Assembly: GCF_963514075.1 (NCBI RefSeq)
Contig: NC_083776.1
Coordinates: forward strand, 18,886,415 to 18,950,414
Length of the DNA: 64,000 nucleotides
Source of the DNA: Conger conger
Lineage: Eukaryota
Reading direction: 5' to 3'
How positions within the stretch are numbered: the first letter of the stretch is position 1; the number at the start of each line of letters is the position of its first letter. Position numbers and translations under genes: made by a program. Shown here piece by piece: positions 29,232-63,600 of this stretch. The notes under the pieces were generated by a model. The model saw only the letters and a list, made by a program, of their open reading frames with translations. It ran no database searches and was not told the origin of the DNA.

Positions 29232-31295
29232 ACAAGGAGAACATTCCCAATCGGTTAATATAACACGCCTACTCCTCCAAAACTAAAGAACTGACATATT
29301 TAATACTTTCATTGTGTTTCTTCAATGCCCTCTTGTGTAAACAGCACATAAAAGCCTAGCGAGTGTGACCAACCACCATTTTAATCCTTTAATTGAATGA
29401 TTATGGTATTACTGTCTGCAATGTGTTCATTAGCTCTCACGAGACATTAAATCAACTAAATATAAATTTCCCCCATTTGATAAAGAATTAATTAACTAAT
29501 TATATACAGTATATTGAATCGATGGGAAAGATGGGAAATCTGAGAGGATTGGGAATTTGTGAATCAGGGACCAAACATAATTCAAGTAAATCAAAGGACC
29601 AGAATATAATATGACATACAGTATAATCCTATATAATAATTGGCAAACTCAGAAATAAGGCCAATTCTCAAATATAGCCAGCTACAGGCTCAAAAGTAAA
29701 AGAAAAATGCATTCCTACATATAGAGTTTGTACTTCACGTTAAGAATGTGAAACATGGCAGACAAAACCAAATTTTTACTCTCAACAGGCTGACTGAACT
29801 GAACACACCTTTAAGGATCCAATTCCCATTGTTGCACTTTGCCCATAAAAATCACCAAAACATATTATTTCTGGCTGAAAATTCCCTGTATAAAATAGTT
29901 GGCAAGTGCTATGTAGTTGAAGAAAATTAGTTTTACAGTAAAGATTAATACACTAGCATGTTGGGGGTACATTTTCATGGTAAATATGCCATTTCTGTTA
30001 TTAAATCTGGTAGCTCATTGACTTGTAAATATATGCATTTCATCAAGCCATGGAAGCACTTAACTATTACAACTGATTTAGCAATTTATATCGATTGCAT
30101 ATTTACAATAAATTTTAAATCATTTGACAGTGATCAAAGATTTTTTTCCATCACCACAAATGTTTAAGAATAATTTCATATTGCAGAAAATGTGGCTTTA
30201 CATTACATATACCTACCACATCAATACTTAACTTACAAATCAAAATGTAGACTTGTGAATGCAATTATCAGTTCTGATATAAACTCTTAAGTATGCATCA
30301 CTTTTCAACCTTGCCTAAATCAGCATACTACAATATTATTTTTATACTAATTTGTCCCATTCTGTGAAATAAAATAAATATGAGCGACCTAGCAGCATTT
30401 CACTTGTGTAGCCAACTATGCAATTAATTATATGCAGCGAACAGATTTTCAGCTAACTCTACATAACATAGAACTCCTGCTAGCAGGAAGAACTGAGAAC
30501 TGAGGTAGCTTCAGCAACATGGACATCAGTCAGTATCTTAATGTAAAAAAAGAAGGCCTTTTTTTTATTTATTTTTATACCCAATGGCCTTCAATGCGGG
30601 GCTGAGGATGTCCCAATTCCACCCCAATTTGGAATGTCCAATTAACCATTTGCATTGATGTGGAAAACCTACAGCCAATTCAGGAGAGAGGATGTCCCTG
30701 GTCCTCCGCTGAAGCATGTGGAATCATAGCCTGCACTGTTCCACACCACTGACTACAGCCAAGCTCCCACAGAGTGGAGTCAGAGGAAGACCTTTCATAT
30801 GAGGCTTTGGCACTCGACTGGCCAGTGGGGGGAGCTAGAGAGCGATGAAATGTGGATCTCTAAGTGACTGAGCCCTCCGGTACTCTGGGTGACACAAATC
30901 ACCAATTGTGCATCGCCCTGTGGAGCTAACAGTCACAGACTGGGATTTGATGCGAAGCAGCAAGGCTCGTCCAACATGGAGCCCTAACTTAAGAGCAACC
31001 CAGCAGCCATGATTTGTTTTTCAGCTTTAAAACAGATTACTATTACACTATTTTTATAGGGATGGGCATTTTCAGTATTTTCATGGTTTGGTTAACTGAT
31101 TGATTAACCTGTTAAAAATATCACATAATAGGCTCCAATAGGCTGGAACACAGCCCAAACAATAAAAATCAGTCTAACCATTAGTTAGATACTTTACTGC
31201 ACAAAAGGGGCATCCATTTGTGACAAGTGGCGATTGCATGAATATGGCAACTATAAACATCAATACCAAGATTTTCAGCAATAGGCTACTCGCTG

Positions 31296-31425
31296 AACAG
31301 CAGAGGACACTACCTGAGGAACAGCAGAGGACACTACCTGAGGAACAGCAGAGGACACTACCTGAGGAACAGCAGAGGACACTACCTGAGGAACAGCAGA
31401 GGACACTACCTGAGGAACAGCAGGG
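31296..31425. repeat. 24 bp tandem repeat x 5.5 (cctgaggaacagcagaggacacta).
   Basis: Direct reading. The ORF track shows periodic peptides. Confidence 0.9.
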
Positions 31426-36964: not shown

Positions 36965-38880
36965 ATGGTGCTTTATATATAAATTACATGAAGCTCTATG
37001 GTGCTCTAGACAAAGATCTATGGTGTTGCATATACATCAGCTGATGCTCTATGGTACTGAAATTAATCAGGTGAAGCTCTATGGTGCTGCAATGAATCAG
37101 GTGAAACTCTGGTGCTGTAATGAATCGGGTGAAACTCTATGGTGCTGTAATGAATCGGGTGAAACTCTATGGTGCTGTAATGAATCGGGTGAAACTCTAT
37201 GGTGCTGTAATGAATCGGGTGAAACTCTATGGTGCTGTAATGAATTGGGTGAAACTCTATGGTGCTGTAATGAATCGGGTGAAACTCTATGGTGCGGTAA
37301 TGAATCAGGTGAAACTATGGTGCTGTAATGAATCAGGTGAAACTCTATGGTGCTGTAATGAATCAGGTGAAGCTCTATGGTGCTGTAATAAATCAGGTGA
37401 AACTATGGTGCGGTAATGAATCAGGTGAAACGCTATGGTGCGGTAATGAATCAGGTGAAACTCTATGGTGCTGTAATGAATCAGGTGAAGCTCTATGGTG
37501 CTGTAATGAATCAGATGAAGCTCTATGGTGCTGTAATGAATCAGGTGAAACGCTATGGTGCGGTAATGAATCAGGTGAAACTCTATGGTGCTGTAATGAA
37601 TCAGGTGAAGATCTATGGTGCTGTAATGAATCAGATGAAGCTCTATGGTGCTGTAATGAATCAGGTGAAGCTCTGGTGCTGTAATGAATCAGGTGAAACT
37701 CTGGTGCTGTAATGAATCAGGTGAAGATCTATGGTGCTGTAATGAATCGGGTGAAACTCTATGGTGCTGTAATGAATCAGGTGAAGCTCTATGGTGCTGT
37801 AATGAATCAGATGAAGCTCTATGGTGCTGTAATGAATCAGGTGAAGCTCTGGTGCTGTAATGAATCAGGTGAAACTCTGGTGCTGTAATGAATCAGGTGA
37901 AGATCTATGGTGCTGTAATGAATCGGGTGAAACTCTATGGTGCTGTAATGAATCAGGTGAAACTCTGGTGCTGTAATGAATCAGGTGAAGATCTATGGTG
38001 CTGTAATGAATCAGGTGAAACTCTATGGTGCTGTAATGAATCAGGTGAAGCTCTATGGTGCTGTAATAAATCAGGTGAAGCTCTATGGTGCTGTAATGAA
38101 TCAGGTGAAGCTCTGGTGCTGTAATGAATCAGGTGAAACTCTGGTGCTGTAATGAATCAGGTGAAGATCTATGGTGCTGTAATGAATCAGGTGAAACTCT
38201 ATGGTGCTGTAATGAATCAGGTGAAGCTCTATGGTGCTGTAATAAATCAGGTGAAACTATGGCGCGGTAATGAATCAGGTGAAACGCTATGGTGCGGTAA
38301 TGAATCAGGTGAAACTCTATGGTGCTGTAATGAATCAGGTGAAGCTCTATGGTGCTGTAATGAATCAGGTGAAGCTCTATGGTGCTGTAATGAATCAGAT
38401 GAAGCTCTATGGTGCTGTAATGAATCAGGTGAAGCTCTGGTGCTGTAATGAATCAGGTGAAACTCTGGTGCTGTAATGAATCAGGTGAAGATCTATGGTG
38501 CTGTAATGAATCAGGTGAAACTCTATGGTGCTGTAATGAATCAGGTGAAGCTCTATGGTGCTGTAATAAATCAGGTGAAACTATGGTGCGGTAATGAATC
38601 AGGTGAAACGCTATGGTGCGGTAATGAATCAGGTGAAACTCTATGGTGCTGTAATGAATCAGGTGAAGCTCTATGGTGCTGTAATGAATCAGATGAAGCT
38701 CTATGGTGCTGTAATGAATCAGGTGAAGCTCTGGTGCTGTAATGAATCAGGTGAAACTCTGGTGCTGTAATGAATCAGGTGAAGATCTATGGTGCTGTAA
38801 TGAATCGGGTGAAACTCTATGGTGCTGTAATGAATCCGGTGAAGCTCTATGGTGCTGTAATGAATCAGATGAAGCTCGAT
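36965..38880. repeat. Minisatellite, ~30 bp unit (ctatggtgctgtaatgaatcaggtgaaRct), ~60+ copies over ~1.9 kb. It lies in pspc1 intron 4 and ends 35-50 bp from the exon-4 splice donor at 38930.
   Basis: Direct reading. Many overlapping ORF-track entries at 37020..38742 carry periodic peptides (MNQVKLYGAV...). Confidence 0.95.
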
Positions 38881-38930
38881 GGTGCTGCATATGAAACAGG
38901 CGTAGAGCGTGGTTTTGCACAGCACTTCAC

Positions 38931-39127: not shown

Positions 39128-39710
39128 CTGAAAAGCACACGGTACCTCTGTCAGGCCCTGTTACCCCACATCAGGCCCCGTTAGCCCAAGTCAGGCCCTG
39201 TAACCCCCATGATTTTGATCGCATCATTCTGCCGATTCCGCTCAAATCATTTTAGGGGGGGTCGCAGCCCATAGTTCAACGCCTAAACAGCTGTCACTCT
39301 CATTTTTATGTTCCTGATTTACAGATAAAAGCAACTGATAATAAGGCGCAACACAGGAAGTCCAAATCAGAATATTTAAACCGGAAGATCTAAACCAGAA
39401 AATCTAAAGCAGAAGATCTAAATCAGGAGCCTTTGATCACAGTGGCTGGAGTGGCCCCATATAGAGACCTTAACAATGCGTCTCAGTGGACAATTCTAAA
39501 AAGCAGCTATTAATACATTGAAAACCAGGACATCCAATCAGAATGAAAACATACAAATTAGGCTCAGCAAGTAGCGCCCGCAGCCTTCGTTCTCAAACGG
39601 TGTTTAAACGGTGTTACTTTAAAGAAATACTTCAGGCTAAAACACTTACATCATTCATAAACATTAGCAGCAATGCGAAAAGTAACTGCCTAAATGAATA
39701 ATAGCCTTAC

Positions 39711-39967: not shown

Positions 39968-41544
39968 CAGTGCATCCGGAAAGTATTCACAGCGCTTCAC
40001 TTTTCCCACATTTTGTTATGTTACAGCCTTATTCCCAGATTGATTAAATTCATTTTTTTCCTCCAAATTCTACACACAATACCCCATAATGACAACGTGA
40101 AAAAAGTTTTTTTGAGATTTGAGATTTGCAAATTTATTAAAAAAAGAAAACTAAGAAACATAAGTACATAAGTATTCGCAGCCTTTGCCATGAAGCTCAA
40201 AATTGAGCTCAGGTGCATCCTGTTTCCACTGATCAACCTTGAGATGTTTCTACAGCTTAACTGGAGTCCACCTGTGGTAAATTCAGTTGATTGGACATGA
40301 TTTGGAAAGGCACACACCTGTCTATATAAGGTCCCACAGTTGACAGTGCATGTCAGAGCACAAACCAAGCACGAAGTCAAAGAATCGTCTGTAGACCTCT
40401 GAGACAGGATTGTCTCGAGGCACAAATCTGGGGAAGGGTACAGGAAAATTTCTGCTGCTTTGAAGGTCCCAATGAGCACAGTGGCCTCCATCATCCGTAA
40501 ATGGAAGAAGTTTGGAATCACCAGGACTCTTCCTAGAGCTGGCCGCCCGTCTAAACTGAGCAATCGGGGGAGAAGGGCCTTAGTCAGGGAGGTGACCAAG
40601 AACCCGATGGTCACTCTGTCAGAGCTCCAGCGTTCCTCTGTAGAGAGAGGAGAACCTTCCAGAAGGACAACCATCTCTGCAGCAATCCACCAATCAGGCC
40701 TGTATGGTAGGGTGGCCAGACGGAAGCCACTCCTTCGTAAAAAGCACATGGCAGCCCGCCTGGAGTTTGCCAAAAGGCACCTGAAGGACTCTCAGACCAT
40801 GAGAAACAAAATTCTCTGGTCTGATGAGACAAAGATTGAACTCTTTGGTGTGAATGCCAGGTGTCATGTTTGGAGGAAACCAGGCACCGCTCATCACCTG
40901 GCCAATACCATCCCTACAGTGAAGCATGGTGGTGGCAGCATCATGCTGTGGGGATGTTTTTCAGCGGCAGGAACTGGGAGATTGGTCAGGATTGAGGGAA
41001 AGGTCAATGCAGCAATGTACAGAGACATCCCGGATGAAAATCTGCTCCAGAGCGCTCTTGACCTCAGACAGGGGCGACGGTTCATCTTTCGGCAGGACAA
41101 TGACCCTAAGCACACAGCCAAGATATCAAAGGAGTGGCTTCAGAACAACTCTGTGAATGCCCTTGAGTGGCCCAGCCAGAGCCCAGACTTGAATCCGATC
41201 ATCTCTGGAGACATCTGAAAATGGCTGTGCACCGACGCTCCCCATCCAACCTGATGGAGCTTGAGAGGTGCTGCAAAGAGGAATGGGCGAAACTGCCCAA
41301 AGATAGGTGTGCCAAGCTTGTGGCATCATATTCAAAAAGACTTGAGGCTGTAATTGCTGCCAAAGGTGCATCAACAAAGTATTGAGCAAAGGCTGTGAAT
41401 ACTTATGTACATGTGATTTCTTAGGTTTTTATTTTTAATAAATTTGCAAAAATTTCAAAAAAACTTTTTCCATTATGGAATAAGGCTGTAACATAACAAA
41501 ATGTGGGAAAAGTGAAGCGCTGTGAATACTTTACGGATGCACTG
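39968..41544 (+). mobile_element. Tc1-like DNA transposon, ~1577 bp, flanked by TA target-site duplications, with terminal inverted repeats of about 70 bp (TACAGTGCATCCGGAAAGTATTCACAGCGCTTCACTTTTCCCACATTTTGTTATGTTACAGCCTTATTCC). The transposase is corrupted. It is inserted in pspc1 intron 2, antisense to pspc1.
   Basis: The left end at 39968 and the right end at 41470-41544 are reverse complements, with the right end carrying one mismatch (c->a); TA at 39966-67 and 41545-46. Internal ORFs 40460..41218 and 41167..41385 carry the DDE-transposase hallmarks (ILWSDETKIELFG, NTIPTVKHGGGSIMLWGCF, DNDPKHTAK, LEWPSQSPDLNPI, EEWAKLP...KRLEAVIAAKGASTKY). Confidence 0.9.
40330..41388 (+). pseudogene. Tc1 transposase coding region, inactivated. 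There is an in-frame stop near the N-terminal HTH region and a frameshift near 41215 that splits the DDE domain over two ORFs.
   Basis: ORF 40460..41218 (252 aa) and ORF 41167..41385 (72 aa) lie in different frames. An upstream ATG at about 40351 is followed by TAG after 14 codons. Confidence 0.8.
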
Positions 41545-42804
41545 TATACCAGCAAGATGATCTCAGTCTCTGAAAGACTTACAGAAGGTTACAGAGGTTC
41601 TGTAAATTAAATAACCTGCTGAATGGTGACAGGAAGCTGCCATCTAGCTGACAAACCATAACTATTTTAAGTGATTCACTTACTTCAGCTGTCTTAACCT
41701 CAAGACCATCTAGTTACTCCAAAGTTCCTTAGGTTTTCTGTTCAACTTTTCTGTTCAACTTGGCCAACTCACATTAAATATTTATGCAAAACTGTCTTCA
41801 AAAAATAAATAAATAATACAATTTAACCCTACATTTATTAGAGGGGGGTTTCTACTTCAGATCATCAAATGACCTGAATCACTATTTTTAAAAAGGTGAG
41901 GGAAAACATATGCAAAGTATGCAGCATTTTCAAGCTATAGGTTTTTCTACCTCCTCACTGAGCCAGCCAACTCATTAAGTACAAATACAGCGTCATTTAA
42001 AATGTTAATTAGCCTTTACACTACGGAAGTGGCTTCTTCAGCCCGCAGCACTTAAGCAATGACATTTGTTCCCGCAAGACTACATAAAACAGCAGGAGCT
42101 GTACTCCAGATTAGCTTCTGTACAGACTGCGAAGGAATAGAAGCTTGTAATGTAGTTGGCCTGACAGGAGGCTTCCTTTGTGCAAATTTGATTAGCACGT
42201 CTACTTCATTTAATTAAGCGAGCTAGCGATGGGACAAATCTAGACAAAACATTTTCACGATGTTGCAGAAATATACTGCCAATGCCATAACATGTAACAT
42301 AGTGAGACCACTGTTATCTGGGATTAAAGCACCATCCAGTTTTAAACGGTACCATAATACCTGGAAAAGCAGACACTATAGGGAGGTAAAGCGGACGTTT
42401 TGAGAACTAAACCTCCGGTAAACTGCTCCCTATTAACTCAAGAGGCGAAAGCTAAATATAAGCAAACTACGTAGCGCTGAAGTCTGGGTTCAAAGTATGA
42501 GTTTCATGGTATAATTACATAGCTATATGCTGAATATAAATTCGTAGAAAGTCCTGTTTAGCATTTTTACACCTTTAAGACTGGCTAAAACTCAGTCTCT
42601 CATAATGCTGTCCCTTTCTTCCACAATTGGACCATCCTAATGCCACAGACAGTGGTGTCTGTATTCATTCATCATCCCGACTCATGCAATTTAAAATTCT
42701 GACTTTACCAGCATGATTTGAACACAAGCAACAACAAGGCTGCCACGCTAGACAGAGACTGCCACGCTAGACAGAGACTGCCACGCTAGATTTTTTCCAC
42801 TCAC

Positions 42805-57025: not shown

Positions 57026-58025
57026 GTCAGGGCGGCAGGAATCCTACCATCTCACATTATTATCCCCATTGGGTTTCCTGGTTTAACTGTGAGCAGAAGC
57101 ATACAGAAGTCCTGGATGAAGTGGTGAACGTGCCAATGGCATACCGATTAAACATTTTTGTATTCTCATCATAAATTTATCTTACTTTTTTGAACGAAGG
57201 GCTCATACGAGTGTGCGACGTCGGATTCAGTGAACGCACTTAACTTCAGACAACTGTCCTGAATGAAGATTTTCATTATGATACAGTATATACGGTACTG
57301 TACGTAGATTCTGTCATATAGATGGCCAAACGATTAACAAGAACAAGGGACTACTGATACCTGATTCGGTAGACTGTGGTTCCTTTGGTTTTTGGAAAAA
57401 CCTAATCATATGGCAGACTGTTGATCAGCTGTCTTTTTTCTCCTAAACAGTCCACTAAAATATGTTTCTGGAAACATTTTAGGTGAGAAATCCTGATTCA
57501 TATTTGATCTGCAAGGCCTAGTTTGAAAGTTTGATTGGAGTTTGGTGTGCCAGGCGAGCTGTGCTGACATGCACTGCAAGGCTCTTGGTTACATGAGTTG
57601 TACGACAGGTCGGGACCACTCGTAAATGTTGTTCCTACGTAAGAAAATATTCTAAATGACAGAAAATGATTGAATGTGCCAAGTTCTCTTAAATCACTTG
57701 TTTATGAAAGTTTTAAGTGATTTAAGAACTAATGTGTTGTTCTTGCATGAGGCCTGGCGTGTATCGTTTTTGTTTACTTCTCTGACTTTTACGCGGAGGG
57801 TGAGGGTAGTAATGCAGTACAATTGGCAGGGAACTGAGTTTGTAACCTAAAGGTTGCAGGTTCCATTCCCAGGTAGGACACTGCTGTTGAGCACAGTGCA
57901 TAACCTGAATTGCTGCAGTAAAATAAAAAAAAGGAAACCCTCTGGATAAGCGCATTAGCTAAACGCCTGTAATGTAATGGTGATGTTCCCTTGCATGTGA
58001 TTTTTACTTGTATTTCATTTCTCAG

Positions 58026-58194
58026 GCACACGGGAAGATGACGATCTGCAGCGGGTGTAAGACTTCGTGCCGCGCTCTCACAGGCACGCACTGCATCGGG
58101 GCAAATGGCACCATGGAAACGTTCTGCTCCGCCATCTGCATGGCCAAGACCAAGGGCTCCACCACCACCGTCAGCACCACCACCACCACCACCA
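58026..58194 (+). CDS. zmym2: zmym2 coding exon 5 (AHGKMTICSGCKTSCRALTGTHCIGANGTMETFCSAICMAKTKGSTTTVSTTTTTT-).
   Basis: Anchored to ORF 58008..58241. Acceptor tttcatttctcag| and donor ACCA|gtgagtctcc. The phase (+1) is needed to join exon 6 in the MYM frame. Matches human KLTTCTGCRTQCRFFDMTQCIGPNGYMEPYCSTACMNSHKTK. Confidence 0.8.
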
Positions 58195-58345
58195 GTGAGT
58201 CTCCCTCTCCCACACTGTATGGCCTACTGCAGTCACTGTAGAGTGAGTCCCACTCTCCCACACTGTATGGCCTACTGCAGTCACTGTAGAGTGAGTCCCA
58301 CTCTCCCACACTGTATGGCCTACTGCAGTCACTGTAGAGTGAGTG
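58190..58345 (+). repeat. Tandem array, 3 x 48 bp plus a partial unit, beginning exactly at the exon-5 donor. Each unit begins AGTGAGTC(C/T)C and so reiterates the a|gtgagt donor consensus. A further partial copy lies about 270 bp downstream at 58598-58640.
   Basis: Direct reading of agtgagtctccctctcccacactgtatggcctactgcagtcactgtag repeated. ORF-track entries 58105..58362(+) and 58022..58393(-) show periodic peptides. Confidence 0.9.
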
Positions 58346-58666
58346 GAAAGTCCCCCAGATGAACTTCACAACAGGGGTCGTGAAGGGGTGCACAACAATG
58401 GCTGATCAGTTTCTGCATTTTGTGCCAACTTCTGGTCTCAATTATTTAATTGACTCAATCATATCTCATCTGACATGTGCATGAGTGTATCTGAAAGATT
58501 TTACTGTGCTCAAGTACAGGCTTGAACCAGAGTAATTAATAGAGCTGTCAGCAAATGAAAAACAAGGCAATTGGTTGGAACAAAAACCAGTACGCAGACC
58601 GGTAGAGTGAGTGAAAAGTCCCTCAGATGAACTTTACAAGCTGTATCTGTAGCAGTTTTCATGTTT

Positions 58667-58842
58667 AACCCTTTCAGTCCAAAGGCCAATCTGAAGTGGC
58701 TCCACCCAAGTTTTAATAGGTGCTCAAAACAATAGTATAGCAGTCATTTTGATTGGTTGAAAAGGTATAGATTGTAAACTCTTGGAATTTTACAGTAGTA
58801 ACACTTGAGTGCCATATGGCCCTCCCGGAACTGAAAGGGTTC
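58667..58842. mobile_element. Second full-length copy of the CCCTTTCAGTCC MITE (termini AACCCTTTCAGTCCAAAGG ... GGAACTGAAAGGGTT), in zmym2 intron 5.
   Basis: Inverted termini are read directly. Internal AGTGCCATATGGC palindrome is shared with the 8213-8388 copy. Confidence 0.6.
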
Positions 58843-59130
58843 ATACTTTTTGCTGTTGGATGTTTCCCATGGAAGCACTCAATCTGGATTCGCTTTCGAG
58901 TGAAACAGCTTGTACATGTTCACACAGACATTTATGTTTTTAAACAAAAAAACGAACAAACAGAAACTGCTCTATTGATTTATACCGACATTGAACTGAC
59001 TGGTGGATGCCTCAGGATCATACTGCAGGAATTTGGGTCCAACAGCTAGAAGGATTTCTCTGGGATGTTATGTGTGTGTCTGTGTTATCAAAAACCTTCT
59101 TTAAGCCCCCCCTCATTTGTCTGTCCTCAG

Positions 59131-59246
59131 CTACTGAACCCCGCTGTCATTTCTGTAAAGAGAAGGCCTTGCCGCAGTACCAGGCCACACTTCCAGAGGG
59201 GGTGGTGTATAACTACTGCAGCTCCACCTGCATGACTAAATTTCAG
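59131..59246 (+). CDS. zmym2: zmym2 coding exon 6 (-TEPRCHFCKEKALPQYQATLPEGVVYNYCSSTCMTKFQ).
   Basis: Anchored to ORF 59007..59408. Acceptor tgtctgtcctcag| and donor TTTCAG|gtacagg. 116 nt (2 + 38 codons). Matches human ICHFCKRNSLPQYQATMPDGKLYNFCNSSCVAKFQ. Confidence 0.85.
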
Positions 59247-59672
59247 GTACAGGAACTCTGTCCTGGTGGGCATGCTGGTGGTTTGGAATCATTAACCCTG
59301 TTTTTGCAATGTACTAAATGTTTCAAAATGCCAAGCCAGTGTTCTAGAACTCCATTGGTTTCAGTTACCAGGAGTGATTTTTACATCAGCATTAGCATGT
59401 TCAGTTAAGATGATTCTGATCACACATTTGTGATCTCACACCTAAAAGAGGTAATGGATTTATACCTCATCAAAAAGCACTAGTCCCTGTGACATTGAGT
59501 GATATTTCTTGGGAGGAAAAAAAAAAAAAAAAAAGGAAGAAATTGTCACAGATCTCTGCTTTCTTAGCCCAGTCGCCTACAAAAGATAAAGCGCTTGAGA
59601 TAATGCTGTTCTGTAAGAGCCTTATTTAAGACCCAGCTTGAGTTTAGGATTTCTTTTTCTTCTCCCGTTTAG

Positions 59673-59804
59673 GATTTTACTGCCCTTTCCGGGAAAAAGT
59701 CAAACGGTCAGACGGCACCTTCCTCCACAACCAACAACATTCAGCTCAAGTGCAATTACTGCAGAGGGGCCTTCAGTCTGAAGCCCCAGACCCTGGAGTG
59801 GGAG
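59673..59804 (+). CDS. zmym2: zmym2 coding exon 7 (DFTALSGKKSNGQTAPSSTTNNIQLKCNYCRGAFSLKPQTLEWE).
   Basis: Acceptor ctcccgtttag| and donor TGGGAG|gtgagc. 132 nt = 44 codons. Matches human SDIQLKCNYCKNSFCSKPEILEWE. Confidence 0.8.
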
Positions 59805-60213
59805 GTGAGCTCCAGCATGTGTGTGTCTGCTCTCACTTCATTCCAGTGCAGTTATTTAGCTGATGCTTTTAACCAGACTTAGAGTTGATTTGAGGAAGGT
59901 ATTCGGCAGTCCGGTATCCATACGACCGGTCTGAAATTTCACTCTCTTCCCCCCCAGAATACAGAAGAGCGTTTGTTAATCAGTGACATTTCTTCACAGT
60001 TGACAATTTAGGAACTAACACAGACTTTCATTACTAATCGAGAACCAGGTTCATTTGAGCATTCCCACTGGTTTAAGTGGTTCGCTCCATTTTATTTGAT
60101 GGCCCCCCTCAGTTTTGACCGGTCTCCTCGGTGACCGTGTCTCTCCTGCGGTCAGGAGTGTAAATGGGAGTGAAGATCAGCGATATTTAAACAGGACTTT
60201 CTCATTCCTCCAG

Positions 60214-60364
60214 AACAAAGTCTACCAGTTCTGTAGCAAGCCCTGCTGCGACGACTATAAGAAGTTGCACTGCATAGTTACGTTCTGCGAGTACTGTCAG
60301 GAGGAGAAGACTCTTCACGAAACCGTCAAGTTCTCAGGGGTGAAGAAGCCCTTCTGCAGTGAGG
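60214..60364 (+). CDS. zmym2: zmym2 coding exon 8 (NKVYQFCSKPCCDDYKKLHCIVTFCEYCQEEKTLHETVKFSGVKKPFCSEG-).
   Basis: Anchored to ORF 60115..60444. Acceptor ttcctccag| and donor GAGG|gtgagatg. 151 nt. Matches human NKVHQFCSKTCSDDYKKLHCIVTYCEYCQEEKTLHETVNFSGVKRPFCSEG. Confidence 0.9.
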
Positions 60365-60799
60365 GTGAGATGCTTGTCCTTCTCCCTGCACTTCTCCTTT
60401 CTACATTTCCCTTTTCATTCCGTCCCTCAGGTGTGAACACGTGAAGCTTGTTAATCACTCCGAATAAGTAAATAATGTATTGATACGGTTAGGTGTTATG
60501 TACTGGTCGTTCCTGTTACTGTACTGAATTTGCGTACTCTCTGCAATAAATGACTAACTGATTAATGAAATGTGTCCACTAGATGGAGTGCTTGCACAAG
60601 AGTCGTCGCTTGTGAGCTGAAAGTCTGGAAAGCTGTCGTTTTACTGTCAAATCTTTTTTTTCCCTAAAAAGTGGGGATCTCATAGTTCTCACTTCTGCGT
60701 TATTGAACCAGTTGATTATTTATTGATTGATTATTGACTGATTGCGGCTGATTAATTAATTGATATTTTTTGTCCTCCTTCCCTCCTCATCACCCCCAG

Positions 60800-60972
60800 G
60801 ATGCAAACTGCTGTACAAGCAGGAATTTGCCAAGCGACTGGGGCTGAAGTGTGTCACATGCAACCATTGCACCCAGATGTGCAAGAGAGGCGTGACCAAG
60901 CAGATCGACGGAGTACAGCGGGACTTCTGCAGCGAGCCCTGCGCCAATAAGTTCAATGACTGGTACTACAAG
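60800..60972 (+). CDS. zmym2: zmym2 coding exon 9 (-CKLLYKQEFAKRLGLKCVTCNHCTQMCKRGVTKQIDGVQRDFCSEPCANKFNDWYYK).
   Basis: Anchored to ORF 60760..61098. Acceptor cacccccag| and donor TACAAG|gtgagtctc. 173 nt. Matches human CKLLYKQDFARRLGLRCVTCNYCSQLCKKGATKELDGVVRDFCSEDCCKKFQDWYYK. Confidence 0.9.
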
Positions 60973-61047
60973 GTGAGTCTCAGAAACGCTTATGGCTCTC
61001 TGTTCAATGACTGGTACTACCAGGTGAGACTCAGAAACACTCCTGGT
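60951..61047 (+). repeat. Tandem duplication (period 51 bp) of the exon-9 3' end plus its splice donor: TTCAATGACTGGTACTACAAG|gtgagtctcagaaac ... TTCAATGACTGGTACTACCAG|gtgagactcagaaac.
   Basis: Direct reading. The exon-9 ORF reads through the first gtgagt in frame to the second donor (KVSLRNAYGSLFNDWYYQ). Confidence 0.9.
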
Positions 61048-61097
61048 TTTGTACAAAATGGCCGTAGTGCAACTTCTCCTGCTCTGTTCCTTAGCTA

Positions 61098-61365
61098 ATG
61101 TGTGTGTGTGTGTGTGTGTGTGTGTGTTCATGTGCATATGTGTGTGTGTGCACGTGTGTGTGTGCGCGTATTTGTGTATATTTTTGTGTGTATGTGTGTA
61201 TGTGTATGTGTTCATGTGCATATGGGTGTGTGTGTTTGCGCACGTGTCTGTGTGTACGTATTTGTGTGTATTTTTGTGTGTGTGCGTGCGCGTGTGTGTG
61301 TATTTTGTGTGTGTGTGTGTGTATTTGTGTTTGTGTGTGTGTGCGCGCGCGTGCCTGTATCTGCT
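61098..61365. repeat. GT/GC-rich compound microsatellite ((GT)n, (GTGTGC)n) of ~270 bp in zmym2 intron 9, ending a few bases from the exon-10 acceptor.
   Basis: Direct reading. ORF-track entries 61049..61411, 61098..61385 and 61102.. are CV-rich translation artefacts. Confidence 0.9.
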
Positions 61366-61371
61366 CTCCAG

Positions 61372-61537
61372 GCGGCGCGCTGTGACTGCTGTAAGCTGCA
61401 GGGGAATCTGAGCGAGTCGGTGCAATGGAGGGCTGAGATGAAGCACTTCTGCGACCAGCAGTGTCTCCTCCGCTTCTACTGTCAGCAGAACGAGCCCAAC
61501 CTGGCCACGCAGAAAGGGCCCGAAAACATGTCCTACG
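61372..61537 (+). CDS. zmym2: zmym2 coding exon 10 (AARCDCCKLQGNLSESVQWRAEMKHFCDQQCLLRFYCQQNEPNLATQKGPENMSYG-).
   Basis: Anchored to ORF 61102..62163. Acceptor tctgctctccag| and donor TCCTACG|gtacgtc. 166 nt. Matches human AARCDCCKSQGTLKERVQWRGEMKHFCDQHCLLRFYCQQNEPNMTTQKGPENLHY. Confidence 0.85.
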
Positions 61538-62065
61538 GTACGTCTCACACACCAGTGTGTCTCTGCCCAGAGAACATGTCACACGGTACATCTCACACGT
61601 CTGTGTGTCTCTGGGTCCAGAGAACATGTCATACGGTGCGTCTCACACACCTGTGTGTCCCTGCCCAGAGAACATGTCACACGGTACATCTCACACGTCT
61701 GTGTCTGTCTCTGCCCAGAGAACATGTCATACGTTACATCTCACACACCAGTGTGTCTCTGCCCAGAGAACATGTCACACGGTACATCTCACACGTCTAT
61801 GTCTGTCTCTACCCAGAGAACATGTCACACGGTACATCTCACACGTCTGTGTCTGTCTCTACCCAGAGAACATGTCATACGTTACATCTCACACACCAGT
61901 GTGTCTCTGCCCAGAGAACATGTCATACAGTACGTCTCAAACGTCTGTGTGTCTCTGCCCAGAGAACATGTCATACGGTACGTCTCACACGTCTGTGTGT
62001 CTCTGCCCAGAGAACATGTCATACGGTACATCTCACACGTCTGTGTGTCTCTGCCCAGAGAACAT
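61520..62065 (+). repeat. Minisatellite of ~11 units of 48-50 bp (cagAGAACATGTCMYACGgtacRtctcacacRYCWGTGTGTCTCTGCC). It starts inside the last 17 nt of exon 10, so every unit repeats the exon end plus the G|gtac donor and is preceded by cccag.
   Basis: Direct reading. Because the period is a multiple of 3, the ORF track shows long open frames across the array in three frames (61102..62163, 61461..62180, 61655..62125). Confidence 0.9.
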
Positions 62066-62480
62066 GTCCAAAATCTCCCATGGCATTTTATATGGGGGCG
62101 TGTGCCACTTGCTTTGTATTTATAAGGAATGCAATATGCACGGCTATGTGGTTTCCACAATAGCGCCAGTTAGCTACTGATACGTCTTCCTGTTGCATTT
62201 TTGTATTGAATAAAAATGGATACTTGACTCCTGGACAAGGCTGTCTGCTATCTTGGCAAACACTAGTTCAGTTTTATCAGCCCCCACCATAGTCTGTCAT
62301 TTTTAAAGTAGCACTTTTGTCAGTTTAGGTGTATTTTATAGGTATATTGACTAATTGCCATCACAGTCAGATTACAATTTGATAGTGGCATCTTAACATT
62401 TGAAGAGGGTGGACCCCATACCATCGTTTATATCATTACTATGATTTACTCCCATTTCAAACCCTGTTCTCCTTTTTCAG

Positions 62481-62515
62481 GGCCTGGAGGACAGCCACAG
62501 GGAACCAAGGCAACG
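62481..62515 (+). CDS. zmym2: zmym2 coding exon 11, a 35 nt small exon (-PGGQPQGTKAT).
   Basis: Acceptor ttctcctttttcag| and donor GCAACG|gtaagtg. Phase (+2 in, 0 out) links exon 10 to exon 12. There is no direct homology memory. Confidence 0.55.
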
Positions 62516-62519
62516 GTAA

Positions 62520-63270
62520 GTGATAAGGGCTCTGCTCTCCTTCAGGGAGGTGTTACGATGTCTCTGGAGTTATAATATCTCTGGAGTTATAATCTCTCTG
62601 TGGGATTGTAATATGACCACTGTGGGATTATAATCTCTCTGTGGGGTTACAATCTCTCTGTAGGTTTATATAATGTCTCTGTGGGGATATAATCTCTCTG
62701 TAGGGTTATAATCTCTCTGTGGGGTTATAATATAGCCTATTTATGGGTTTACAATCTGGCCTCTCTGTGGATTTATAATCTTGCGTCTCTGTGGGATTGT
62801 AATATGACCACTGTGGGATTATAATTTCTCTGTAGGGTTATAATCTCTCTGCGGAGTTATAATCTCTGTGGGATCATAATCTCTCTGTAGGGTCATATAA
62901 TCTCTCTGTGGCATTATAATCTCTCTGTAGGGTTATTTAATCTCTCTGTAGGGTTATTCTCTCTGTAGGGTTATATAATGTCTCTGAGGGGTTATAATCT
63001 TTCTGTAGGGTTGTATAATGTCTCTGTGGCGTTATCATCGCTCTGTGGTCTTATAATCACTCTGTGGGGTTATAATCTCTCTGTGGCGTTATAATCGCAA
63101 TGTGGGGTTATAATCTCTCTGTGGGATTATAATCTCTCTGTGGGGTTATAATCTGACCTCTCTGTGGGGCTATAATCTCTGTGGGGTGGGGTTATAATCG
63201 CTCTGTGGGGTTATAATCTGACCTCTCTGTGGGGTGGGGTTATAATCTCTCTGTTCACTGGGATGGGTTT
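62520..63270. repeat. Minisatellite of a ~20 bp unit (GGGTTATAATCTCTCTGTGG and variants), ~35 copies, filling zmym2 intron 11.
   Basis: Direct reading. Confidence 0.95.
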
Positions 63271-63282
63271 CTCTCCCTGCAG

Positions 63283-63427
63283 GTGTATAATCAGACCTCT
63301 GTGCCTGCCTTCGCTGGGGGAGGAATGCTGAAGGACGTTAAAAACAAGGCTGTGCTCTGCAAGCCCCTCACGCTGACCAAGGCTACCTACTGCAAACCCC
63401 ACATGCAGAGCAAGCACTGCCAAACAG
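63283..63427 (+). CDS. zmym2: zmym2 coding exon 12 (VYNQTSVPAFAGGGMLKDVKNKAVLCKPLTLTKATYCKPHMQSKHCQT-).
   Basis: Anchored to ORF 63229..63543. Acceptor ctctccctgcag| and donor AAACAG|gtacaaatg. 145 nt. Matches human EMKNKAVLCKPLTMTKATYCKPHMQTKSCQT. Confidence 0.9.
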
Positions 63428-63439
63428 GTACAAATGCAC

Positions 63440-63600
63440 ACACACTGCCAGAGAGATGCACACAATGTCAAACAGGTATGGATACACACACACACACACA
63501 CACATACAGGCATGGACACACACACTGCCAGACAGACAGGTAAAGACAGGTACACATACATACTCACACTCACCCTATGACAGACAGGTACAGCATATGT
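63440..63600. repeat. (CA)n / CAGA-rich microsatellite in zmym2 intron 12.
   Basis: Direct reading. Confidence 0.9.

Follow-up and report, generated by a model that had tools for sequence, protein, structure and literature searches.

Organization of the zmym2 locus

The genomic window considered here is a stretch of 64,000 nucleotides (nt) from Conger conger (contig NC_083776.1, positions 18,886,415 to 18,950,414; all coordinates below are those of the window, and all features lie on its forward strand unless stated otherwise). It contains zmym2, a gene coding for MYM-type zinc fingers, in which three introns open with tandem repeats that carry copies of the 5' splice site, or donor, with which the intron itself begins. 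The gene has 13 coding exons, which extend from about 53.7 kb to the end of the window. The exon model was built on splice signals, reading-frame continuity and tblastn comparisons with relatives, and the exons, whose reading frames are intact, are numbered from the one that contains the ATG. Exons 5 to 10 translate into six zf-FCS (MYM-type; Pfam PF06467) stretches (E = 3.6e-46), and the closest named relatives in the protein collection are the chicken and godwit ZMYM2. For exon 10, the identity to the ZMYM2 proteins of godwit and of seal, the latter unnamed in the database, is 80-88%, and the top identity in the protein-collection search, 88-91%, falls on the most conserved exon. The divergently oriented upstream neighbor is pspc1-like, matching the arrangement at human 13q12.11. 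The sequence features support a MYM-zinc-finger gene that is nearest to ZMYM2, with zmym3 and zmym4 not explicitly excluded. An earlier reading made from the letters of the window (henceforth the sequence-only reading) had called the gene zmym2 and had placed arrays with reiterated donors after exons 5, 9 and 10. The zinc-finger stretches, the named relatives and the pspc1-like neighbor uphold the gene call, the exon numbers coincide with ours, and all three arrays, with genuinely reiterated donors, were recovered where it had put them by both Tandem Repeats Finder (TRF) and families of direct repeats.

Copies of each exon-intron junction were sought downstream of it with a probe of 20 exon nt and 12 intron nt, scored against null draws, and donor strength was gauged with a simple position-weight score. 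By this score the authentic donor of exon 9 is the strongest in zmym2 (8.2), and those of exons 5, 10 and 12 are weak (2.9, 3.4 and 0.5). Counted from the G of the donor, the first position of the array is -1 after exon 5, -22 after exon 9 and -20 after exon 10.

Anatomy of the junction-linked repeats

The most extensive of the three arrays follows exon 10 (61372-61537; splice model and conserved exon end), which ends in ...QKGPENMSY-G at the donor ACG/GTACGT, the slash here and below marking a splice boundary. The array occupies 61518-62068 with 11.3 copies at 86-88% matches (TRF, family D1), in keeping with the earlier estimate of about 11 units. Alignment of these units reveals that lengths of 48 and 50 bp alternate, giving a 98-bp higher-order repeat, and that the first monomer is made of the final 20 exon nt and 28 nt of the intron; the junction probe scores 49, the null draws reaching 20 at most. 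Ten copied donors follow the authentic one at offsets of 48, 98, 146, 196, 244, 294, 344, 392, 440 and 488. Five of them read GTACAT, two TTACAT (with loss of the GT), one ACA/GTACGT and one GTGCGT; the sole copy equal to the authentic ACG/GTACGT lies at offset 440 and is out of frame (frame 2). Just two offsets, +48 and +294, are in frame, and both have GTACAT, which lacks the G at +5. This +5 G>A change is found in seven of the ten copies, including the two that have also lost the GT, and a -1 G>A change is found in one further copy; both are CpG>CpA transitions, and the authentic donor retains both CpGs. The copies are shedding CpGs in the manner of unconstrained DNA. The array leaves each of the three forward frames open, and the open reading frames (ORFs) of 156-353 amino acids that the sequence-only reading had noted there do exist. 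The units also hold a 3' splice site-like CCCAG/ and a 5' splice site-like /GTAC, the AG and the GT lying 15 nt apart.

Exon 9 (60800-60972; splice model and conserved exon end) ends in ...FNDWYYK at the donor AAG/GTGAGT (60973). Here, the exon end and its donor are duplicated in tandem with a 51-bp period, as had been claimed (60951-61046; family D7, probe and donor table). The two copies, 60951-60995 and 61002-61046, are 89% identical, and each comprises 22 exon nt and 23 intron nt; the duplication measures 51 bp x 1.9, and the junction probe scores 54, well above the highest null score of 19. The copied donor, CAG/GTGAGA at 61024 (+51 nt), agrees with the authentic one at seven of nine positions and is in frame, and its use would insert 17 open codons, VSLRNAYGSLFNDWYYQ. 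Among the three reported arrays, this copy alone makes a credible in-frame alternative donor. Farther downstream, a compound (TG)n-derived repeat with higher-order periods of 42 and 90 bp (61099-61343; TRF, families D2 and D3) takes up about 60% of intron 9.

The array after exon 5 (58026-58194; splice model, frame and zf-FCS match; donor CCA/GTGAGT at 58195) has a different relationship to its exon. It occupies 58194-58344 (TRF, family D5) and indeed consists of three 48-bp units that each open with AGTGAGT (3.1 copies, 98% matches), the unit reading AGTGAGT...CACTGTAG. The layout, (AGTGAGT + 41 nt) x 3 + AGTGAGT, is as would be expected of slippage between the donor and a pseudo-donor lying 48 nt farther along. 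The copied donors, AGA/GTGAGT at 58243, 58291 and 58339, are identical to the authentic one in the hexamer and differ from it at positions -3 and -2. The array shares with the junction just the last exon base (A, 58194) and GTGAGT, and the junction probe found no significant copy downstream (score 16 versus a null mean of 13.9). The claim that the exon end is reiterated is therefore overstated at this site; it holds for exons 9 and 10. In the frame of exon 5 every unit closes with CTG TAG, where the ORF at 58008-58241 ends, and any downstream donor would thus bring in a premature stop. A detached copy of the end of the array and its 3' flank (58334-58371), 92% identical, is located at 58602-58639 (family D9) and contributes a fifth GTGAGT after exon 5, at 58607. 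On the exon side, the last 36 nt (58159-58194) are a coding (CCA)12 tract for poly-Thr, which TRF shows to abut the array directly and which is a possible slippage-prone seed.

Two further repeats are linked to the acceptor and the donor of exon 12. Exon 11 (62481-62515; sequence and phase check) is a 35-nt coding exon, GPGGQPQGTKAT, with the donor ACG/GTAAGT, and its length fits a 12-amino-acid stretch of mammal and bird ZMYM2. The intron after it is filled by about 33 copies of 19-24-bp units (62561-63303; TRF and probe), the last and diverged monomer of which extends across the acceptor and ~20 nt into exon 12 (24 of 32 positions identical; acceptor probe score 28 versus a null maximum of 25). 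In the whole window, TATAATCNGACCTCT is found just at 63147, 63212 and 63286. Coding exon 12 (63283-63427; sequence, splice model and donor score) has the weak donor CAG/GTACAA (63428), and its end and donor are part of an old, diverged 48-nt duplication (63407-63493; probe and alignment; 31 of 39 positions identical), the probe score of which, 22, was reached by none of 300 null draws. The copied donor, CAG/GTATGG at 63476 (+48), outscores the authentic one. These donor-side and acceptor-side repeats are two additional, degenerate cases. By eye, about eight of the intron-11 units have TGTAG/GG, the true acceptor being TGCAG/GT, and the array is the acceptor-side counterpart of the donor arrays. 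Further AGACAG/GTA motifs are seen at 63540-63590, beyond the exon-12 duplicate.

Comparison with other vertebrates and origin of the repeats

The exon ends from which the repeats depart, FxDWYYK and QKGPENxxYG, have been conserved across vertebrates, fishes and mammals included. The unit of the exon-10 array has GC CCA GAG AAC ATG TC, and the corresponding codons in a fish contig (L002) are GGC CCA GAG AAC; the present exon 10 has GGG CCC GAA AAC, with three synonymous differences from the L002 codons. Because the exon ends are conserved and the unit matches the L002 codons, the unit was copied from the exon end, rather than the exon end from the unit.

The sequence-only reading had proposed a search for the same arrays in other species, and they are missing from every other vertebrate zmym2 sequence that continues beyond the exon-9 or exon-10 donor. 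In fish-like contigs, intron 9 measures 80 nt (L001), 99 nt (L002) and 98 nt (L005), and none of these three shows a duplication there. Past the exon-10 donor, no array was found in contigs L001, L003 and L005, and L002 passes into a (GT)n microsatellite some 10 nt beyond this donor, at the end of the contig. Likewise, there is no repeat in the ORFs that extend beyond the exon-9 donor (P0003, P0006, P0007) or in those that extend beyond the exon-10 donor (P0010, P0011, P0015). A scan of metagenome contigs with the exon-10 array unit gave no match, and a protein-guided metagenome scan recovered distant vertebrates only, without arrays. As the other vertebrate sequences beyond these donors are free of arrays, the arrays are lineage-specific copies of the exon ends.

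The exon-5, exon-10 and other units, taken with their flanks, have no copies elsewhere in the window at up to three mismatches, and the units of different arrays are mutually unrelated, with pairwise local alignments no better than those of shuffles. Accordingly, the arrays stem from independent local events. The same data lead us to reject an origin from a transposon or dispersed repeat, for within the 64-kb window units and flanks occur only in their own arrays, and a common origin of the arrays, given the shuffle-like alignments. We also rejected the possibility that the units are recursive splice sites: AG and GT are not juxtaposed in them, being separated by one extra nt in the exon-5 array (TAG-A-GTGAGT) and by 15 nt in the exon-10 array.

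Placement of the repeats and the neighboring gene

Local direct repeats account for 16% of that part of the window which belongs to zmym2 versus 7% of the whole. Of the five arrays that TRF finds in the introns of zmym2, three lie across a donor (binomial P = 1.2e-3, with a chance of about 5% per array derived from array-free intron lengths), and with the exon-12 duplicate counted this becomes four of six (P = 9e-5). When all starts between -25 and +60 nt from a donor are considered, four of five arrays in zmym2 (P = 0.003) and two of eight in pspc1 (P = 0.016) qualify. These P values are suggestive only, since the counts are from two genes and 13 arrays, the distance window and thresholds were post hoc, and the finding was selected from many windows. 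Without their repeats, introns 9 and 11 would measure about 100 and about 60 nt, respectively, the former resembling the 80-99 nt of other fishes. The excess of donor-straddling arrays is partly expected from such short ancestral introns along with a likely selection against duplications at the branch point or acceptor. Three donor-spanning repeats with unrelated units (58195, 61538 and 63428) share a period of about 48 nt, and the period at 60973 is 51 nt.

The pspc1-like gene (21770-49083, reverse strand; RRM_1 and NOPS domain matches) is transcribed divergently from zmym2 and has tandem repeats as well. The intron after its exon at 39129-38931 is nearly all a minisatellite of 30 bp x 64 (37013-38900), which begins 30 nt past the donor. 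A perfect array of 19 bp x 2.7 (42740-42790) begins 14 nt past another donor, and one of 20 bp x 2.8 (39151-39207) stops 22 nt before an acceptor; no exon sequence is present in these three junction-near arrays. Within an 11-kb intron there is a perfect array of 24 bp x 5.4 (31295-31423), the unit of which reads ...TGCTGTTCCTCAG/GTAGTG on the pspc1 strand, with a 3' splice site-like tract joined directly to a GT; it resembles a recursive splice site, the 5' splice site part being weak. Another pspc1 intron feature is an ORF for a Tc1/Sleeping-Beauty-like transposase (HTH_Tnp_Tc3_2, DDE_3) at 40460-41218 on the forward strand.

Explanations for the reiterated donors

We consider it likely that these repeats are independent, lineage-specific tandem duplications and minisatellites at zmym2 boundaries, the copied donors of which are silent or minor and are drifting. 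Under this proposal, replication slippage or unequal exchange, acting in a stretch rich in minisatellites, would have generated arrays whose first monomer spans the exon-intron boundary at exons 9, 10 and 12 and abuts it at exon 5. The first copy of the donor would give a normal mRNA, since the unique exon is upstream of the array, and the duplications would be tolerated because all the sequence downstream is intron. By analogy with intron 7 of human F7 (IVS7), the splicing machinery would pick the most upstream donor, leaving the drifting copies silent or with a minor role at most. The sequence-only reading had named young intronic minisatellites seeded at exon ends as its fallback; this is the better-supported of its two readings. 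The array anatomy, the copying from exon end into intron, the lack of arrays in other species and the decay seen among the copies are the firm ground here, and we infer that the copies are neutral.

Several points weigh against this proposal. First, it depends on a donor usage that we infer for this species. Second, the exon-9 copy is strong and in frame, and the first pseudo-sites are used in IFI6 and CBS (PMC1557585), making some alternative splicing plausible. Third, the exon-derived part of the exon-10 unit is less variable than the intron-derived part (6 differences in 20 columns versus 26 in 28), in a count that was made over the intronic copies and, given the higher-order repeat, reflects too few independent events for selection on the exon-like part to be claimed. 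Finally, with three of five arrays straddling a donor and a 48-nt period that recurs, pure chance may be an incomplete explanation.

The last point leads to a more systematic version, in which the donor-proximal part of an intron is a preferred site of minisatellite birth or survival in this genome. As to function, it is compatible with the explanation we favor. Candidate reasons would be short ancestral introns, selection against hits at the branch point or acceptor, or a hot spot for breaks at the 5' ends of introns. The share of zmym2 arrays that straddle a donor, the clustering of starts near donors in both zmym2 and pspc1, and the short repeat-free lengths of introns 9 and 11, like that of intron 9 in other fishes, speak in its favor, as does the form of the exon-5 array, (m+u)x3+m with m = AGTGAGT, which fits slippage between donor and pseudo-donor. 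However, the numbers are from 13 arrays in two genes with windows and thresholds set after the fact, the finding was picked from many windows, and the pspc1 arrays have no exon sequence; we regard a systematic preference as unlikely. A bolder combination, in which the 5' ends of introns are systematic sites of seeding or survival where exon ends with their donors, plus an acceptor in the case of exon 12, are copied time and again at a preferred length of ~48-51 nt, and some copies (exon 9 +51, exon 12 +48) make lineage-specific in-frame ZMYM2 isoforms, seems to us distinctly unlikely.

The functional interpretation put forward by the sequence-only reading was of a ladder of equally strong donors, the frames staying open, so that use of the copies could add in-frame insertions of 16-17 amino acids or 15-nt micro-exons. 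Extended to exon 12, this view would place insertions between the MYM fingers: +17 after exon 9, +16 after exons 10 and 12, or 5-residue micro-exons (ENMSH/ENMSY). Parts of this survive. The exon-9 copy is close to the authentic donor in score and opens 17 in-frame codons, the exon-12 copy outscores the donor from which it was derived, the exon-10 array is open in the three forward frames, and there is the precedent of IFI6 and CBS. Equality of the donors holds at exon 5 and nearly so at exon 9, but fails at exon 10, where one of ten is identical. Similarly, the in-frame insertion is available at exon 9 but not at exons 5 and 10. The frames do not stay open throughout, for the exon-5 units end in an in-frame TAG and the 50-bp units shift the frame of the exon-10 array, the one matching donor of which is out of frame while the two in-frame ones lack the G at +5. 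The 15-nt micro-exons were rejected, as the signals are just 33-35 nt of 'intron' apart and most donors are weakened. Introns of that length fall below the usual vertebrate minimum. A protein consistent with the orthologs requires the first donors, and in F7 even identical downstream sites are silent. A functional ladder is improbable in our estimate.

The reiterated donors might instead act as intronic U1-binding enhancers or decoys that aid the weak donors of exons 5, 10 and 12, in line with the low scores of three of the four authentic donors concerned; but the strongest donor, that of exon 9, is duplicated too, the exon-10 copies are losing positions that pair with U1, and the arrays were not found in the other species examined, all of which renders this role very improbable. 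An assembly artefact, with repeats collapsed or expanded by the assembler, is hardly credible, for although tandem repeats are error-prone in assemblies, the substitutions here are structured (the 98-bp higher-order repeat and the CpG transitions) and the exon reading frames are intact.

Significance

If the copied donors are silent, the arrays would be an ordinary by-product of a repeat-rich region. They are of consequence for annotation nonetheless, as gene predictors may choose a wrong donor or call ORFs through the exon-10 array. Moreover, one gene offers four reiterated donors in different states: identical and stop-containing copies after exon 5, a strong, in-frame one after exon 9, decayed ones after exon 10 and one stronger than its source after exon 12. 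This makes the zmym2 locus a natural test bed for the choice of 5' splice sites, comparable to intron 7 of F7. The recurrence could come from short ancestral introns, from survivorship or from a real hot spot; if arrays were found to start preferentially at donors genome-wide, this would give a new insight into the birth of minisatellites in compact introns.

Comparison with known systems

Tandem duplication that copies splice signals is reportedly also a route of intron gain, in which the duplication of an AGGT-containing segment yields intron-breeding tandem arrays. The exon-10 array resembles this in that its units carry both kinds of signal (CCCAG/ and /GTAC). Unlike in intron gain, the zmym2 introns are pre-existing and conserved, the coding sequence is unchanged and no new intron has arisen. 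A second parallel is presented by genes of the mouse pseudoautosomal region, whose short introns are largely filled with minisatellites, which is ascribed to high recombination and unequal crossover (bioRxiv 10.1101/2022.03.26.485930). The zmym2 region likewise has short introns largely filled by arrays; the mouse study describes no donor reiteration.

The closest parallels are minisatellites with a boundary-spanning first monomer, known from F7 IVS7, IFI6 (6-16), CBS, LMNB2 and PDGF (PMC1557585). The structural definition, of head-to-tail intronic monomers of ~10-100 bp, the first of which contains the exon-intron junction, describes the three zmym2 arrays too. In such arrays splicing uses the donor farthest upstream or the first two or three of the series (PMC1557585). 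In IFI6, with a 12-nt minisatellite, and in CBS, with its variable number of tandem repeats in intron 13, the first two pseudo-donors are also used (PMC1557585). Like these, a repeated donor in zmym2 could give in-frame insertions, and they offer a model for what the exon-9 (+51) and exon-12 (+48) copies might do. In contrast to their units of 12-31 nt, those of zmym2, known here at the level of sequence, are 48-51 nt, and two of the three arrays would yield a stop codon or frameshift.

In intron 7 of human F7, a 37-bp monomer is repeated 5-9 times, and the first monomer combines the last 4 bp of exon 7 with 33 intronic bp (Borensztajn et al. 2006, PMC1557585). Splicing there relies on the upstream donor alone; the downstream sites, although identical and functional, stay silent, since the site farthest upstream is the one chosen (PMC1557585). 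The exon-5 and exon-10 arrays parallel this with their boundary-spanning first monomers (1 and 20 exon nt, respectively), with units in the tens of bp and with an authentic donor followed by its own copies. They differ in that F7 has strictly identical pseudo-sites, whereas the copies of the exon-10 array have mostly diverged, and in that F7 has one array, whereas zmym2, as read from one haplotype, has three clear and two degenerate ones. The sequence-only reading had known of no precedent for donor reiteration in several introns of one gene. The structure as such does have precedents, in the five genes listed above; it is the recurrence within a single gene that stands as the new aspect, at three and arguably five sites, which is suggestive and nominally beyond chance.

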